Of a stretch of 64,000 nt of DNA, positions 28,015-37,946 are shown piece after piece (position 1 is the first letter of the stretch; each line of letters starts with the position of its first letter). This stretch comes from a phage, in sequence record PZ027503.1. One strand, written 5' to 3'. Position numbers and translations under genes: made by a program. Under the pieces are notes generated by a model, which saw nothing but the letters and a program-made list of their open reading frames with translations, made no database searches and was not told where the DNA came from.

Positions 28015-28368
28015 TCATTCATAAGAGCAAGCAAGGATCACGCCTGCAATATAAAGCCAATAATTTTCCCTTTCTCGTTGGATTTTATCATCGCTGCTAT
28101 TCTCTTTAATGTATCCCCAGGATGTTAACAACCGATCTACTTCCCAATACTCGAAAGCTATATTAATATTTGACGGTAAACCTTGTAACCATGATGCTAT
28201 TGCTCTGATAATGTTATGATCGTAACGTTTTTGATTATCGGTGTACCAATATTCAGATTTAAAACAGCGCATCAATTCCGCGATCTTCTCTTTCTCTTCT
28301 GTGATGCCATACTCGCTATAATCAATTGAGGCCAGAATATAAAGTTTAATTGCATTTTGTGCTTTCAT
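28015..28368 (-). CDS. hypothetical protein (117 aa)
   Basis: ORF track. Confidence 0.55.
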   Translation of the reverse strand: MKAQNAIKLYILASIDYSEYGITEEKEKIAELMRCFKSEYWYTDNQKRYDHNIIRAIASWLQGLPSNINIAFEYWEVDRLLTSWGYIKENSSDDKIQRERENYWLYIAGVILACSYE

Positions 28369-28387
28369 GGTGTCTCTCTTCTGTTGT

Positions 28388-28445
28388 TGGCGGCACCATT
28401 GCCGCCCTATGTGTTACATCTTACCGGATTTTTAAAACTTGTCAA
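28388..28445 (-). promoter_or_regulatory. promoter plus 5' stem-loop cassette
   Basis: hairpin GGCGGCACCATTGCCGCC 28389-28406; TTGACA 28439-28445 (minus). Confidence 0.6.
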
Positions 28446-28667
28446 TCATTTTTCTACTATCATTTGATACCCTGTTTCCAGGTTAGTAAACACCGTGATC
28501 CCGTCCTGGCGTTCACTCATTAGCATACAAGGCGCTAACATCCTTTCTACTGCCTTGCACTCATTGTAAACGGCGGTTATGTCTCCTGCGGCCTTGTCTT
28601 CTGTGGTGAATGTATCGTTTACGTAAACCTGACCAGCGACAACGGCGACAATAGCGAAAGTGATCAT
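28446..28667 (-). CDS. hypothetical protein (73 aa)
   Basis: ORF track; MITFA N-terminus shared with next small ORF. Confidence 0.5.
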   Translation of the reverse strand: MITFAIVAVVAGQVYVNDTFTTEDKAAGDITAVYNECKAVERMLAPCMLMSERQDGITVFTNLETGYQMIVEK

Positions 28668-33036: not shown

Positions 33037-33303
33037 ATGACAAATACTACATTACACCTTATGCACTCATTGGGCTGGCAAGGCGGCACGGTGCACCAGG
33101 TAGCAAGCGCAACGGGCTTAAAGGTTGAAACAGTTCTCAACCTGGGCGATCATAAGGTGGAAGAGATAGATCATTTTGATTCGTTCGCTGATGGTTATTT
33201 ATGGGCTTGCAGTGGCGGCGGGGAAAGCAAGATACCGCCAGGGGAGCGGGGTAATATGTATTTTTGGTTAGGTGTCCTATCCTGGCAAGAAGATAAAAAA
33301 TAA
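33037..33303 (+). CDS. hypothetical protein (88 aa)
   Basis: ORF track; isolated rightward ORF in hub, weak RBS. Confidence 0.35.
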   Translation: MTNTTLHLMHSLGWQGGTVHQVASATGLKVETVLNLGDHKVEEIDHFDSFADGYLWACSGGGESKIPPGERGNMYFWLGVLSWQEDKK

Positions 33304-33552
33304 TCTTGACAAGCCCAGGGATCGGGCTTATACTGTTTTACATACAGAAGAGGAAGCGCCACCCCACGGCGTAAAGGCGGGGCTAACATACCAGGGCGCT
33401 GGTTGGAAGGTTGATCGCCGGTAGGCTGGGCGCTATATATTTGTAAAGAAATGTAAAGATAAAATAATCGCTTGCTTTCCTGGCTGGATCTGTTATTCTT
33501 ATTACATGGCGAGGGGACACGGGAGCGCGAGACAAACACCACCCCTGCGCGT

Positions 33553-33670
33553 CATTCTCTAGATGAGAATGATTATCATTCACCTTATTAAATAAGAATC
33601 AATCTCATTTATAAACTTAAATGCGAATCATTATCATTTGCATTTCCATATGAGAACTCTTCTCATTCTC
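33553..33670. promoter_or_regulatory. cluster of operator-like palindromes (TCATTCTC/GAGAATGA, GAATGATTATCATTC, GAATCATTATCATT)
   Basis: overlapping inverted repeats seen in sequence; same motif family as 20681 and 20863. Confidence 0.45.
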
Positions 33671-33686
33671 ACCTGCATAAATTTTT

Positions 33687-33863
33687 GTAAACTTTAAATT
33701 TTGCTTTTGTACTTTCATTTTTGTAAAAGCAAAAAAACTTTAAATACTGTGGGCGCGCAAAATTTTTAAAATTTTCCTTGACTTTTGAGTTTTGTTTTGT
33801 ATCTAACATTTTAAGATAATTTTCCTAAACTTTAAATTTTGGTTTTCAACTTTCACTTTTGTA
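33687..33863. repeat. two 39-bp direct repeats (35/39 identical) plus partial copies, iteron-like
   Basis: AAACTTTAAATTTTGCTTTTGTACTTTCATTTTTGTAAA at 33687 and 33825; AT-rich. Confidence 0.5.
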
Positions 33864-34024
33864 AATTCTTAAAAAGTTTAAATAATTTGAGGGATTTTTG
33901 AGATAATGGATAGTGGGAATTTGATATAACCTTTAATCTTATTAGTAGACCTTCAGGAACCCACTTAGATCGAATCCTAGTGATGCAAACTGAAAAAGAT
34001 AAGGGTTTGTATAGGACAAAATAA

Positions 34025-34055
34025 CAGGCTCTCTACGGTGCTGTAGGAGCCTTAT
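34025..34055. terminator. bidirectional terminator
   Basis: GGCTCTCTACGGTGCTGTAGGAGCC hairpin with T-rich flanks. Confidence 0.5.
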
Positions 34056-34107
34056 TTCTATGCTACAAAGTGACACCTTTGTTCTAAAAATGAAAAAAGT
34101 TAAAATA

Positions 34108-34650
34108 TCACAAATATCGTCTTTGCGGTATTTTGTCTGGGAAAAGTATTTCGATCAGTTTATTATGATATTTACCTAAAAGATTCTGCCCTTTCCAGGT
34201 GGCAGGGTTTAGCACCCCTGGTTCATACATCCCCATTCCAATTCCGTAAACCTTATCGTAGGGGCTTGCTTCAACAAACGTTTTGTATTGGTAAAGGTGT
34301 AAGTCTGCATACAAATCTGGATTCTGTACATATTTCAAGCATAAACCTCGCATAACAATACGCTCACGGTTCTCTTCCCATACGTTGTTATCAAAATCCG
34401 ACACTGCCCTACCCATACGTTTGTAATAAGCTTGGATCTTCTCATCTTTCCGTATCAAACTATGAGTCAGAATAGCCTGTGCAGTGTTGTGATCATTAAA
34501 AAGCAAAGCTTTACGCCACATCATGTATTGTTCGACACAATTAAATGTCTGATTGTAACCTGGTTCGGTTTCTGTAAAGGGTGCAATATACCAATTACTA
34601 AAAACATCTTTATGTGAAAAGAAGAATACATAATCATCAGTTATTCGCAT
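34108..34650 (-). CDS. NADAR (YbiA-like) domain protein
   Basis: FFFSHKDVFSNWYIAPF and CVEQYMMWRKALLF motifs typical of YbiA/NADAR. Confidence 0.75.
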   Translation of the reverse strand: MRITDDYVFFFSHKDVFSNWYIAPFTETEPGYNQTFNCVEQYMMWRKALLFNDHNTAQAILTHSLIRKDEKIQAYYKRMGRAVSDFDNNVWEENRERIVMRGLCLKYVQNPDLYADLHLYQYKTFVEASPYDKVYGIGMGMYEPGVLNPATWKGQNLLGKYHNKLIEILFPDKIPQRRYL

Positions 34651-34861
34651 TTTTCATACTCTCCAAAATTTCACGTTGCCCTTGCTGATAGGCTTTCATC
34701 AGAACTACTTTAAGGTTTGTCTCCAAGAGGTCTTCATTGTAATTATACCGCTCCACAACATATGTCAATTCATCATAAAGATCAAGAACGGGGTAGAATA
34801 CAGGGTTATCTGCTAAACGTGCCATAATTTCTCCTTTGTTAGTCCATCCACCAGTAGCCAT
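34637..34861 (-). CDS. hypothetical protein (74 aa)
   Basis: ORF track. Confidence 0.5.
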   Translation of the reverse strand: MATGGWTNKGEIMARLADNPVFYPVLDLYDELTYVVERYNYNEDLLETNLKVVLMKAYQQGQREILESMKNANN

Positions 34862-35204
34862 AAACTGCGTCTGCGTCGATGAGTTTGTGTTTGTTGTTTC
34901 GCATGTAGTCTAAGATAAGTAGACGTTTATTGTATCTGGAGAGATTATGACCCTCTTTTCCGCCATAGTCAAAATATTTTGCAAGATCTTTGCACTCAAA
35001 CAAAATTAGTTCGGGAGTTTCTTCACACTGGTCTGTCTGGTACACTTGACGAATGATCATGTATACATCATCGTCTTCCGCTAAATGCTCTACTGGTCCA
35101 CATCCAGCAGGAACAAATTCATAGTCCCATCTGATCAGATGTTTCTCTACTGCTTCAAAGAAGTCCATTCTTTCGTTGCGCATAATTTGAACGTCAACTA
35201 ACAT
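34839..35204 (-). CDS. hypothetical protein (121 aa)
   Basis: ORF track. Confidence 0.55.
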   Translation of the reverse strand: MLVDVQIMRNERMDFFEAVEKHLIRWDYEFVPAGCGPVEHLAEDDDVYMIIRQVYQTDQCEETPELILFECKDLAKYFDYGGKEGHNLSRYNKRLLILDYMRNNKHKLIDADAVYGYWWMD

Positions 35205-36205
35205 GTTTCCTCCTGTAATATTCCACCATAAAGTTTATAAATGTTTTGTATTGATGCCAGACAAGATAGCTCCACTGTTTCTGTGTAGCCGTCTGGCATA
35301 GCATATTTGCTCACTGCTTCTGTGTCTAACACCTTTTTGCAATACTTTTCTGAATTTTTGCACTGCTTCACAGTGGGGAACTGCCACACTTGAACTTGTC
35401 TCATAGTAAACACATTGCGGCTATTCTGTTCTTTGATACGGCGATCACTACTATTGGCAATACCAAACTTCAGTGCACAAAGAATACCATCTTCATCATA
35501 AATATGATTAATGTAACATTGTTGTTGGTTTTGGCCCCCGCACTGCGGACACCCACTCCCCTTATGTAGCAAACCATCTGCACGCCCTATCTGTTCCCCG
35601 TGCTCCTTACATCCATATTTAAACTTACCCATTGTTGAAGGTTTACCGATCCATCCTACCCATATATATCCTCTCCTTTCTACTTCCTTTCTTGTTCTAT
35701 AGGTGGTCTGATCCTCTGTGTATTTGTAACTTGTAGAACAGCGGCAAGGGAGACACCCACGTTTAAGATGACTTCCGGTAGCATAGAATTTACCATCACA
35801 CACCCCAGCTTCCACATATTCATCATGAGAGCAAACAGGACATTCAACCATCCATACTATATCACACCCTTTACGTTCCCCTGTATTGGTGAAAATAGTG
35901 CCTTCCTTAAATTTACCTACCTTCATAAAATCTTGTATGTGTTGCTGGTCTGGAATAGTGATAGCTTTGCTTCTCTTTTTCGAACGTTCCCTGTAGGCGC
36001 ACTTAGGACAACCTCGACCATCTTTAAAACTGTGAAACGTTGTAGTATTCCATTCATGACCATGCTCACAACGATTGATCATCTTCGTATGCACACCTTT
36101 ATCTTCTCCATACGTGCCGAGAATGGTAATCCCTTTAGCCTCAGCTATCGGCTTACATTCTTCCATATATGTTTCAATACTCTTCTTTACTGGCATATCT
36201 AACAA
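35198..36205 (-). CDS. protein with three zinc-ribbon repeats and C-terminal GIY-YIG/T5orf172-like segment (possible nuclease)
   Basis: three CxxHG...GxGCPxC repeats; C-terminal HIY...KFGIANSSDRRIKEQN. Confidence 0.5.
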   Translation of the reverse strand: MLDMPVKKSIETYMEECKPIAEAKGITILGTYGEDKGVHTKMINRCEHGHEWNTTTFHSFKDGRGCPKCAYRERSKKRSKAITIPDQQHIQDFMKVGKFKEGTIFTNTGERKGCDIVWMVECPVCSHDEYVEAGVCDGKFYATGSHLKRGCLPCRCSTSYKYTEDQTTYRTRKEVERRGYIWVGWIGKPSTMGKFKYGCKEHGEQIGRADGLLHKGSGCPQCGGQNQQQCYINHIYDEDGILCALKFGIANSSDRRIKEQNSRNVFTMRQVQVWQFPTVKQCKNSEKYCKKVLDTEAVSKYAMPDGYTETVELSCLASIQNIYKLYGGILQEETC

Positions 36206-36237
36206 TTCTCTTCCTATTAAACTGAAATCAATATAAC

Positions 36238-36257
36238 AAAACCCGCCGAAGCGGGTT
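36238..36257 (-). terminator. intrinsic terminator or attenuator
   Basis: AAACCCGCCGAAGCGGGTTT hairpin, identical stem to 2286-2307. Confidence 0.45.
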
Positions 36258-36274
36258 TAGCTATTTGTGCTGTA

Positions 36275-37414
36275 TCAGAATACGCTACCCAGTGTGGTAG
36301 ATCGCTGCGTTACAGGCTCCAGCACCACTCGCAGAGTGTTTCCTGGTGTAGTGCTCATCACCAGGATCTTACCACCTTCAATCAGATCACAAGTTAGACC
36401 ATCAGCAGTTGCACATAGATCAATATGTGGGTCGCCATCTTCGTCTAGGATAACATAACTATTGGTTTCCATTGCTTCCACTTCATCATCTTTCAAGCTT
36501 TGTAGATAGATGTTCAAGGAACAAGCACCCGACAAAAACTTAGTAGGGGTAAAGTCGTGCCAGTTATTGATCCAATTCACCTTCAAGGTTTTACCATTAG
36601 CTACAATAGAAGCCACATTCCATTTAGCATCATTGCCTAAAGAAATACCCATCATTTCAAGACATTCTTTAAAAGTCATTTTTGGATAGAAATTCAATTC
36701 TTCTACAATGCCTTGAATAACATCGAAAGACAACTCTGTGCTAACATCCCATAAACGTTGGAAGTTATCTACGTGTTTTTTATTTACCAAGTTCTTATCC
36801 AAGTAATCTAACATAGTTTCACTAGACAGTTTATCGTAATTGAAACTGTAGTAGATACGACTAGGACGGTTTACAAAATATTCCGAGATATAGCCACTAT
36901 TTTTAGTGAGGATGTAAAGTTTATTCCCACTTCCTGTTCCATCCAACAAGGTCAACAGTGCTTCCTGATCTTCTTTCTTAGCGTACACTTTATCAAATTC
37001 GTCAAATAAAACAACAGCACGATCTGTAATTTTACTCATAAATTCTAAGAAGCCAGCATCTGTGTAAGGCTGTGTAACCAAAATGGTTGGAATACCTAAA
37101 CCTTCTGTGGACATTAGAGACATGCTAATCAGTTTAGCTAACATCGTCTTACCACTGCCTTTTGTCCCTGTCAGTAACACCCCAGTATTTTTACCTTCTT
37201 TACTACGACGAGCAAATGTTTTAATAACATGTGCGGCGCGATCTTTAGTTTCCCCATAAAGAGTGTTCGGAAGAGAGAAACTTTCGCCACGCACTAAAGA
37301 GTAGTTACCGTGCGGATCGCAGTTGACAACCCAAACTCCAGCAGGAAGTTTATTAGCTTCAACACCATATTCCTTATTTACAACAGCCACATCTCCAAAA
37401 ATAGTGTATTTCAT
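36275..37414 (-). CDS. P-loop NTPase (AAA-type ATPase)
   Basis: Walker A LLTGTKGSGKT; Walker B AVVLFDEFDK. Confidence 0.7.
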   Translation of the reverse strand: MKYTIFGDVAVVNKEYGVEANKLPAGVWVVNCDPHGNYSLVRGESFSLPNTLYGETKDRAAHVIKTFARRSKEGKNTGVLLTGTKGSGKTMLAKLISMSLMSTEGLGIPTILVTQPYTDAGFLEFMSKITDRAVVLFDEFDKVYAKKEDQEALLTLLDGTGSGNKLYILTKNSGYISEYFVNRPSRIYYSFNYDKLSSETMLDYLDKNLVNKKHVDNFQRLWDVSTELSFDVIQGIVEELNFYPKMTFKECLEMMGISLGNDAKWNVASIVANGKTLKVNWINNWHDFTPTKFLSGACSLNIYLQSLKDDEVEAMETNSYVILDEDGDPHIDLCATADGLTCDLIEGGKILVMSTTPGNTLRVVLEPVTQRSTTLGSVF

Positions 37415-37770
37415 TAGAACGTTTCTCCTTTTAAAATAATTACTGTAAACTTTGCAGTTTTTTCACTCTTAATATTCTTGATTAATAAGTACTCTCCTCC
37501 AGGGGCATCTTTGTATTGTTTAATAGCTACTATTTCATTTTTGCAAGTAGCTATAATCGAATAAAAAGGACGTTCCGTGTTATCTTCTTTTCCTGTATAT
37601 GCCTCAACATCTTGGCACTCTTCTAGAACACCATTTCCAGGTGTATAGTAAAATTTGTTGCCTGTGATCACAACATCTTTACCAATATCTGTTTTAACTG
37701 CTACAAATTTTTGAGCGTAAGTGGTGAAGCTTACGGTAGCCAGCAATGTGGCTAAGATTAATTTTTTCAT
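37414..37770 (-). CDS. secreted protein with signal peptide (118 aa)
   Basis: ORF track frame; start at ATG with GGAGGG RBS; MKKLILATLLATVSFTTYA. Confidence 0.6.
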   Translation of the reverse strand: MKKLILATLLATVSFTTYAQKFVAVKTDIGKDVVITGNKFYYTPGNGVLEECQDVEAYTGKEDNTERPFYSIIATCKNEIVAIKQYKDAPGGEYLLIKNIKSEKTAKFTVIILKGETF

Positions 37771-37781
37771 AAACTTCCCTC

Positions 37782-37946
37782 CTATTCCCACAACATACAA
37801 ATCGCAGCGACAAACATATTAGCAATAGCTGCACCAAGAACTATAAACATCGCCAGTTCAGAACAATATTCACCAACCAGAGGGGATACTATTGCACAGA
37901 GTAGTCCCAATGTCAAACACAAGTTGATGATGAAGTTTAAAATCAT
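37782..37946 (-). CDS. membrane micro-protein (54 aa)
   Basis: hand-translated MILNFIINLCLTLGLLCAIVSPLVGEYCSELAMFIVLGAAIANMFVAAICMLWE; AAGGAG RBS. Confidence 0.4.
   Translation of the reverse strand: MILNFIINLCLTLGLLCAIVSPLVGEYCSELAMFIVLGAAIANMFVAAICMLWE

Follow-up and report, generated by a model that had tools for sequence, protein, structure and literature searches.

Proteins of the T5orf172 class are encoded by many phages. Most of them carry at least one zinc finger of the CapR, DUF723 or DUF4397 type, arranged "like beads on a string"; the repeats are gained and lost by recombination, and the genes are situated at the boundaries of genetic exchange (PMC10448857). CapR itself is the repressor of the Vibrio satellite PLE and requires its zinc finger for DNA binding. 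It is related to the N-terminal domains of the ICP1 T5orf172 proteins, which have been proposed to be homing endonucleases (PMC8096241). The zinc-ligand pairs of CapR, CxxC and CxC, are 24-26 residues apart. Zinc-dependent, sequence-specific DNA binding has been demonstrated only for the PLE CapR protein (PMC8096241), and nuclease activity has been proven for the ICP1 T5orf172 protein Odn, in which it depends on a glutamate, the E180A variant being inactive (PMC8263062). Here we describe a locus of this kind in a stretch of phage DNA of 64,000 nucleotides (sequence record PZ027503.1, in the following called the window). An open reading frame (ORF) of 335 aa, counted from a TTG codon (35198..36205, minus strand), comprises three CapR modules and a C-terminal T5orf172/GIY-YIG domain and is situated next to the gene of an AAA ATPase. 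This ORF is likely to be a free-standing gene of the homing-endonuclease type that belongs to the CapR-zinc-finger/T5orf172 class; in the following it is called the nuclease gene.

The window originates from a Phapecoctavirus (subfamily Stephanstirmvirinae), a phAPEC8-like E. coli myovirus of about 150 kb. A 4-kb stretch around the nuclease gene has 98.7% identity with Escherichia phage PNJ1809-36; with about 70 further phAPEC8-like phages the identity is 90-98%. In GenBank, near-identical phages already carry the labels "endonuclease" or "putative homing endonuclease" for this gene.

The closest described proteins are Gp53, Gp121, Gp130, Gp165 and Gp174 of ICP1 (Netter 2021, PMC8096241; Barth 2023, PMC10448857), which likewise consist of a variable N-terminal array of the CapR/DUF723 type and a C-terminal T5orf172 domain. 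A tblastn search with the nuclease protein reached ICP1 genes at 34-35% identity over aa 24-201 (E ~1e-20). Like the nuclease gene, the ICP1 T5orf172 homing genes are free-standing between conserved genes, gain and lose repeats and are found at exchange boundaries. In contrast to the ICP1 class, the present gene occurs in another lineage, the Stephanstirmvirinae coliphages, its modules 1 and 3 use the ligands C-x(1-2)-H...CxxC instead of CxxC...CxC, its T5orf172 match is below threshold, and its site is nearly always filled rather than sporadically occupied. The present subfamily is discussed neither in PMC8096241 nor in PMC10448857 nor in their text-format supplementary files, probably because it falls below the Pfam cut-off used there.

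The preliminary description of the window had listed an ORF of 335 aa with, upstream on the same strand, an ATPase of 379 aa with Walker A and B motifs, and all of these are present. An ATG three codons into the nuclease ORF (36196) gives a protein of 332 aa, which is the length of the homologue P0001 (99% identical); this ATG is probably the start codon. The nuclease protein matches phrog_681 ("endonuclease") with E = 1.3e-64, and NCBIfam and PADLOC returned nothing meaningful for it. The CapR homology domain (Pfam PF21817) is recognised in three stretches with together 83.2 bits (E = 1.5e-23; gathering score 24.2). Module 1 (aa 17-70, 35996..36157, minus strand) reaches 34.9 bits alone (E = 1.7e-8) and has the motif C46-x-H48-G ... 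G-R-G-C66-P-K-C69 with the likely ligands C46, H48, C66, and C69. Module 2 (aa 92-157, 35735..35932, minus strand; 53.4 bits and E = 3e-14 alone) is of the all-cysteine form CxxC...CxC and reads C122-x-x-C125 ... G-C151-L-P-C154-x-C156, the likely ligands being C122, C125, C154, and C156. Module 3 (aa 170-223, 35537..35698, minus strand) contains C199-x-x-H202-G ... G-S-G-C219-P-Q-C222 with the likely ligands C199, H202, C219, and C222; scanned alone it attains 20.4 bits (E = 6e-4), which is below the CapR gathering score. Thus, each module possesses two zinc-ligand pairs, modules 1 and 3 in the variant form C-x(1-2)-H ... CxxC. The preliminary description had read the modules as three tandem copies of CxxHG...GxGCPxC. 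The three zinc modules are borne out by the CapR profile, far above what chance would give, but the literal CxxHG is found in module 3 only and module 2 is all-cysteine.

Four of the ligands (C46, C66, C69, C154) do not vary across the homologues, and three others (C122, C125, C156) are conserved in at least 90%. A recent internal duplication was considered as the source of the three modules and rejected, as pairwise BLAST comparisons between the modules were not significant; the modules are old repeats. No paralogue was found within the 64-kb window with phmmer, with a hidden Markov model (HMM) of the C-terminal domain or with jackhmmer on module 2, and neither was a RepA_N/T5orf172 "Odn-like" gene. 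The AlphaFold model of the nuclease protein has a predicted local distance difference test (pLDDT) value of 92.3 and a predicted template modelling (pTM) score of 0.53.

The C-terminal domain (aa 229-333, 35207..35521, minus strand) contains the segment HIY...KFGIANSSDRRIKEQN at aa 234-261 and shows the beta-beta-alpha-beta-alpha core of the GIY-YIG fold. We aligned 45 diverse C-terminal domains, drawn from 138 homologues and reaching down to 19% identity to the query. Y231, K246, G248, R256, E286, G306, E309, and T310 are invariant in all 45 domains. This set includes the tyrosine of strand 1, the glycine of strand 2 ("YIG"), the arginine of helix 1 and two glutamates, which is the GIY-YIG pattern; either E286 or E309 may be the counterpart of E75 of I-TevI. 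The T5orf172 profile matched 29 of the 45 homologues (best E = 9.4e-6), the related MUG113 profile 26 and the GIY-YIG profile 6 (best E = 1.6e-5). The profile search for GIY-YIG/T5orf172 that the preliminary description had proposed thus finds matches in many of the homologues, the match of the protein itself being below threshold. From this we conclude that the C-terminal domain belongs to the GIY-YIG superfamily and is nearest to T5orf172. As its own Pfam score lies under the curated threshold, the placement in the superfamily rests on the fold and the conserved residues.

The modular combination of a nuclease with DNA-binding elements including a zinc finger is also known from I-TevI and the Seg/Mob proteins of T4, whose genes share with the present one the intergenic insertion beside a conserved gene and the co-carried flanking sequence. 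In I-TevI and the Seg proteins the nuclease domain is N-terminal. Here the order is reversed, with the nuclease domain at the C-terminus, the DNA-binding part is an array of several zinc fingers and not a helix-turn-helix with minor-groove elements, and there is no intron. A C-terminal T5orf172 domain with a swappable N-terminal DNA-binding domain is found as well in Odn (Gp88) of ICP1 and in the RepA_N-T5orf172 proteins of Inny, Muut, and Mt1B1_P17. Two of these three named coliphages fall within the present subfamily, Mt1B1_P17 being a Phapecoctavirus and Muut having a Justusliebigvirus-type allele. The Odn-type proteins, however, use a captured RepA_N domain aimed at a satellite origin, whereas the present protein has a generic CapR array. 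SLX1 and HIGLE (URI/GIY-YIG) are 12-15% identical and resemble the domain at the superfamily level only; these are eukaryotic structure-specific repair nucleases with a RING/PHD partner domain.

The nuclease gene has a history different from that of its surroundings. Between phages the flanking genes are 97-99% identical, whereas for the nuclease gene the figure is 75-77%, or no alignment is possible. In bins of 60 nt the identity drops at the stop codon of the ATPase gene and rises again to 96-100% where the next gene downstream, a gp012 homologue (34839-35204), begins. The stop of the nuclease gene and the start of the gp012 homologue overlap by 7 nt (35198..35204, minus strand), and this overlap forms the right edge of the divergent cassette. 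A nuclease at least 99% identical to that of the window is present in only 6 records, and most Phapecoctavirus alleles are 39-72% identical to it. Phages with nuclease alleles of only 38-85% identity have ATPase proteins of 100% identity. At least three size classes of alleles occupy this one locus, with 326-335, 394-402, and 486 aa, corresponding to three, four, and five zinc modules.

Substitution rates were estimated by the method of Nei and Gojobori. In the nuclease gene the synonymous substitutions per site (dS) amount to 1.06-2.3 in the zinc-finger half and to 0.5-0.7 in the nuclease half, in the ATPase gene to 0.06-0.13 with nonsynonymous substitutions per site (dN) close to zero. Compared with its flanks, the nuclease gene has a synonymous divergence 4-20 times as high. 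Its dN/dS ratio is 0.17-0.25 in both halves, indicating purifying selection. The high dS compared with the ATPase gene together with the low dN/dS means that the alleles are old, functional, and exchanged. The nuclease alleles are therefore far older than the backbones carrying them and have been swapped by recombination; they did not diverge in place. Fast positive selection was considered as the cause of the allele divergence and was rejected, dN/dS being 0.17-0.25 and dS very high.

The left edge of the cassette reaches into the ATPase gene. A cluster of silent substitutions linked to the nuclease allele covers about the last 34 nt of this gene (36275..36308, minus strand), an extent that was read by eye from the 3' ends, the bins being 60 nt wide. 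Seven phages with essentially identical ATPase proteins show 6-9 silent differences in the final 60-nt bin. In phAPEC8, 8 of the 15 nucleotide differences in the ATPase gene (1140 nt) fall into this bin and all of them are silent. The 51-nt 3' variant of the window is 100% identical only in six records, all with the window-type nuclease allele, and 82-88% identical in all other matching Phapecoctavirus records; the one recombinant exception is DIJ07P2. Such a pattern may reflect either co-conversion of flanking DNA or immunity of the target site, and 36275..36308 is a candidate target or immunity site.

Mobility of the gene is indicated by an empty site and by a paralogue. In the Klebsiella phage phi1_175008, a member of the same subfamily, the ATPase gene is followed after 41 bp by a gp012 homologue and no nuclease gene is in between; this is a single relative at subfamily distance, its gp012 homologue being 30% identical (E = 8e-17). 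The phage phiWec186 possesses a second CapR/T5orf172 gene, which is 40% identical in the zinc-finger half and 52% identical in the nuclease half. The paralogue has the opposite orientation and is flanked by the genes for the tail fibre and the tape measure, with no ATPase gene nearby. It comprises 1051 bp (L013:3443-4493), in place of which 13 bp are found in PsgM04F (L014:2244-2256), with flanks 95-97% identical. The paralogue is present in phiWec186, phiWec179, and phiWec181 and missing from PsgM04F, phiWec188, and phiWec190. The nuclease family thus moves within Phapecoctavirus. The insertion polymorphism that the preliminary description had named as a homing signature is seen for the paralogue. 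Its refuting condition, no nuclease-domain profile match together with stable vertical inheritance, gives a mixed outcome: the T5orf172 match of the protein is below threshold, and at the main locus the gene has a fixed position in about 100 relatives, but its alleles do not follow the backbone vertically. The proposal of a free-standing GIY-YIG/T5orf172 homing endonuclease is supported by the fold, the invariant residues, the family profile matches, the empty site, the paralogue and the allele exchange.

How the element might work can be outlined from these data. The three zinc modules would fold independently, as beads on a string, and would jointly read a long asymmetric DNA site, in the vicinity of which the C-terminal GIY-YIG-fold domain would cut or nick the DNA. 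Repair from a co-infecting genome carrying the gene would then copy the cassette into the cut genome; this cassette comprises the nuclease gene, the spacer and about 34 nt at the end of the ATPase gene. We infer that in this way the gene is transmitted with a bias by active homing. The site downstream of the ATPase gene is hardly ever empty in Phapecoctavirus and Justusliebigvirus, and old, divergent alleles with three, four, or five modules move between near-identical backbones. Presumably the alleles compete for one site, and since this site is almost always occupied the present contest is probably one of allele against allele. For recognition or immunity, the variable silent positions at the 3' end of the ATPase gene are the strongest candidate site. 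We tentatively extend this to the possibility that the locus is a multi-allelic battleground, in which old nuclease lineages with three, four, or five fingers recognise the ATPase 3' silent variant linked to their rivals and replace one another. The gene would then be a weapon of phage-against-phage exclusion under balancing or frequency-dependent selection, and would not pass through the classical course of invasion, fixation and decay. The nuclease domains of these lineages are down to 35-38% identical, in genomes otherwise 97-99% identical.

Several observations weigh against a homing gene. The T5orf172 (PF10544) score of the protein is 14.1 bits at full length and 16.3 bits for the isolated domain, where the gathering score is 20. 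A profile of the C-terminal domain found as its best match among the PDB sequences the GIY-YIG protein 1zg2 with a marginal E of 0.1, and a Foldseek search with the whole multi-domain model returned no match, which is expected for a beads-on-a-string protein with the pTM stated above. The gene is surrounded by small early genes, and no replication or structural gene is adjacent. With the exception of EP57, all Phapecoctavirus and Justusliebigvirus records examined have an intact ORF at the locus. EP57, a Phapecoctavirus, lacks window positions 35218-36284 (a deletion of 1067 bp) and is the only loss within the genus; its record of 130.7 kb has other deletions as well and counts for little as evidence. 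The near-constant occupancy together with purifying selection is unlike the sporadic, decaying pattern of homing genes and would fit a gene of benefit to the phage too. Through its deletion the ATPase of EP57 is fused in frame to the gp012 homologue, giving 501 aa (L015:1937-3442). As the record has several other deletions relative to the window, the assembly may be at fault, or EP57 may be a deletion mutant from the laboratory.

The main rival to a homing gene is accordingly a competitor-directed nuclease that is kept for the benefit of the phage, with which the universal retention and the purifying selection fit. In such a domesticated nuclease the zinc array would aim the GIY-YIG domain at the DNA of a co-infecting phage, a satellite or a plasmid, as Odn of ICP1 does with PLE, and the allele diversity would stem from switching of the target specificity in an arms race. 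The dN/dS of 0.17-0.25, the invariant catalytic-type residues, the different numbers of zinc modules between alleles, and a DNA-binding half (40-66% aa identity) more divergent than the nuclease half (35-85%) are in line with this, as are the separate T5orf172 genes of Inny, Muut, and Mt1B1_P17, for which an anti-satellite function has been proposed (PMC10448857). However, the N-terminus is the generic CapR array of the homing class without a captured domain such as RepA_N, the high dS speaks for old lineages that were swapped and not for fast evolution, the paralogue behaves as a plain insertion/deletion, and the gene can be missing, as in phi1_175008 and EP57. Moreover, homing endonucleases cause marker exclusion anyway, so that the two explanations overlap. 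On balance we regard domestication as rather unlikely. Still much less probable is that the protein acts only as a DNA-binding regulator with a vestigial nuclease domain, that is as a repressor resembling CapR or I-TevI whose zinc fingers would control transcription, for example that of its own gene or of the downstream gp012 operon. CapR itself is a repressor derived from the CapR domain (PMC8096241), and the nuclease gene lies just behind a hairpin and runs into the beginning of the gene that follows. A vestigial domain would, however, not be expected to keep all invariant Tyr, Gly, Arg, and Glu positions in 45 homologues down to 19% identity, nor to show a dN/dS of 0.16-0.20.

The preliminary description had also considered that the ATPase and the nuclease act together as an exclusion or anti-defence module. 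In a two-gene module of this kind, whether for defence, anti-defence or exclusion, it would be the part of the ATPase to sense a target or remodel it and to license the nuclease. Throughout Phapecoctavirus and Justusliebigvirus the two genes are indeed neighbours with the same orientation, and the ATPase has weak PADLOC matches (mad8, E = 4.4e-5). The properties of the ATPase (379 aa, 36275..37414, minus strand) point in another direction and place it outside the nuclease element. The Walker A motif G83-T-K-G-S-G-K89-T90 and the Walker B residues D138-E139 are invariant in 50 homologues. A profile of these homologues matches the D2 domains of p97/Cdc48, NVL/Rix7, AFG2, and Msp1 (E ~1e-8), and the structure model (pLDDT 87.3) matches Bcs1, the proteasomal Rpt subunits, Cdc48, FtsH, and NSF. 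Small beta domains flank the AAA core on both sides. An NRPSR motif is present at residues 182-186, which we take to be the second region of homology with the arginine fingers of the classic AAA clade. The ATPase is thus a classic-clade AAA protein (Bcs1/Rpt/Cdc48-like), which settles the family classification called for in the preliminary description. Proteins of this clade are remodellers of proteins and not partner ATPases of nucleases; an ATPase of the ABC/OLD/AAA15 type co-inherited with a nuclease, as in OLD-, Gabija-, or PARIS-like systems, was not found at this locus. Members of the family occur widely among large phages, namely Herelleviridae, jumbo phages, 7-11-like and crAss-like phages, and commonly without an adjacent nuclease gene; in the two neighbourhoods looked at, those of GAP32 and 7-11, no nuclease gene was found beside the ATPase gene, and phi1_175008 keeps the ATPase without the nuclease. 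Besides, the ATPase evolves independently of the nuclease alleles as described above, the paralogous nuclease is located in the tail module, and the nuclease is without a PADLOC match. Finally, the two genes are separated by a G+C-rich, terminator-like hairpin (36239..36258, minus strand), AAACCCGC-TTCG-GCGGGTTT followed by a T-rich tail, within the 69 nt that lie between the stop codon of the ATPase gene and the start of the nuclease gene. Taken together, this argues so strongly against a joint module that we give it hardly any credence.

In 63 records the ATPase protein reaches at least 99% identity, and in many Phapecoctavirus records 100%; this conservation suggests an important role. Upstream of its gene an ORF (37414-37800, minus strand) begins with MKKLILATLLATVSFTTYA. 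The preliminary description had called its product a secreted protein; the ORF is there, and its start resembles a signal peptide, a judgement made by eye.

Around the nuclease locus the minus strand carries a long series of small genes, which continues up to a change of strand near 40.4 kb. A tRNA scan found zero tRNA genes in the window. In a scan for sigma-70 promoters, sites were no commoner than in shuffled sequence, and none was located in the spacer upstream of the nuclease gene. Two genes downstream of the nuclease gene, a gp011 homologue of 74 aa (34637-34861, minus strand) constitutes a second mosaic spot, being 97-99% identical to some relatives and 74-75% to others; its type does not track the nuclease allele, and the gp012 homologue between the two genes stays at 98-99%. 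Further downstream a NADAR-domain protein of 180 aa is encoded (34108-34650, minus strand; Pfam PF08719, E = 7.8e-36), which is named "GTP cyclohydrolase II" in relatives, a label that looks like an inherited misannotation. NADAR enzymes are ADP-ribose-processing hydrolases, and an anti-defence role of this protein is conceivable.

The adjoining region 33300-34100 is A+T-rich and poor in ORFs, has several promoter-like matches and contains direct repeats of 72 nt at 33680-33751 and 33818-33889, which are 82% identical. In relatives this region is 84% conserved compared with 97-99% for the neighbouring genes. An intergenic cassette of 60-100 nt occurs in at least nine copies between 24200 and 32600 of the window (for example 28366-28461). 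In minus-strand order it is composed of a TTGACA-type promoter-like box, a conserved hairpin (GGGCGGCAATGGTGCCGC), a ribosome-binding region (AACAGAAGAGAGA), and an ATG. It looks like a common early promoter and 5'-leader unit ahead of many small genes. Among the database records, MG065650 and MG065639 (labelled as Campylobacter phages), OP562383 (Acinetobacter), and OR584014 (Pseudomonas) are 90-96% identical to the coliphage nuclease locus; their host labels may be unreliable.

Being an uncharacterised representative of a class already known, the nuclease gene adds little to present knowledge. The part worth following up is only the multi-allelic cassette with the linked silent cluster in the ATPase gene. 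For annotators it follows that the adjacent AAA ATPase is not to be taken for a partner of the nuclease, and that a search with Pfam thresholds would probably miss the present subfamily. With this gene the recently defined CapR/T5orf172 homing class extends to the phAPEC8-like coliphages, which are candidates for phage therapy. The locus could be used as a natural system for studying how a zinc array retargets a GIY-YIG nuclease, as it offers about 100 near-isogenic backbones, at least three size classes of alleles and a candidate target at the 3' end of the ATPase gene.

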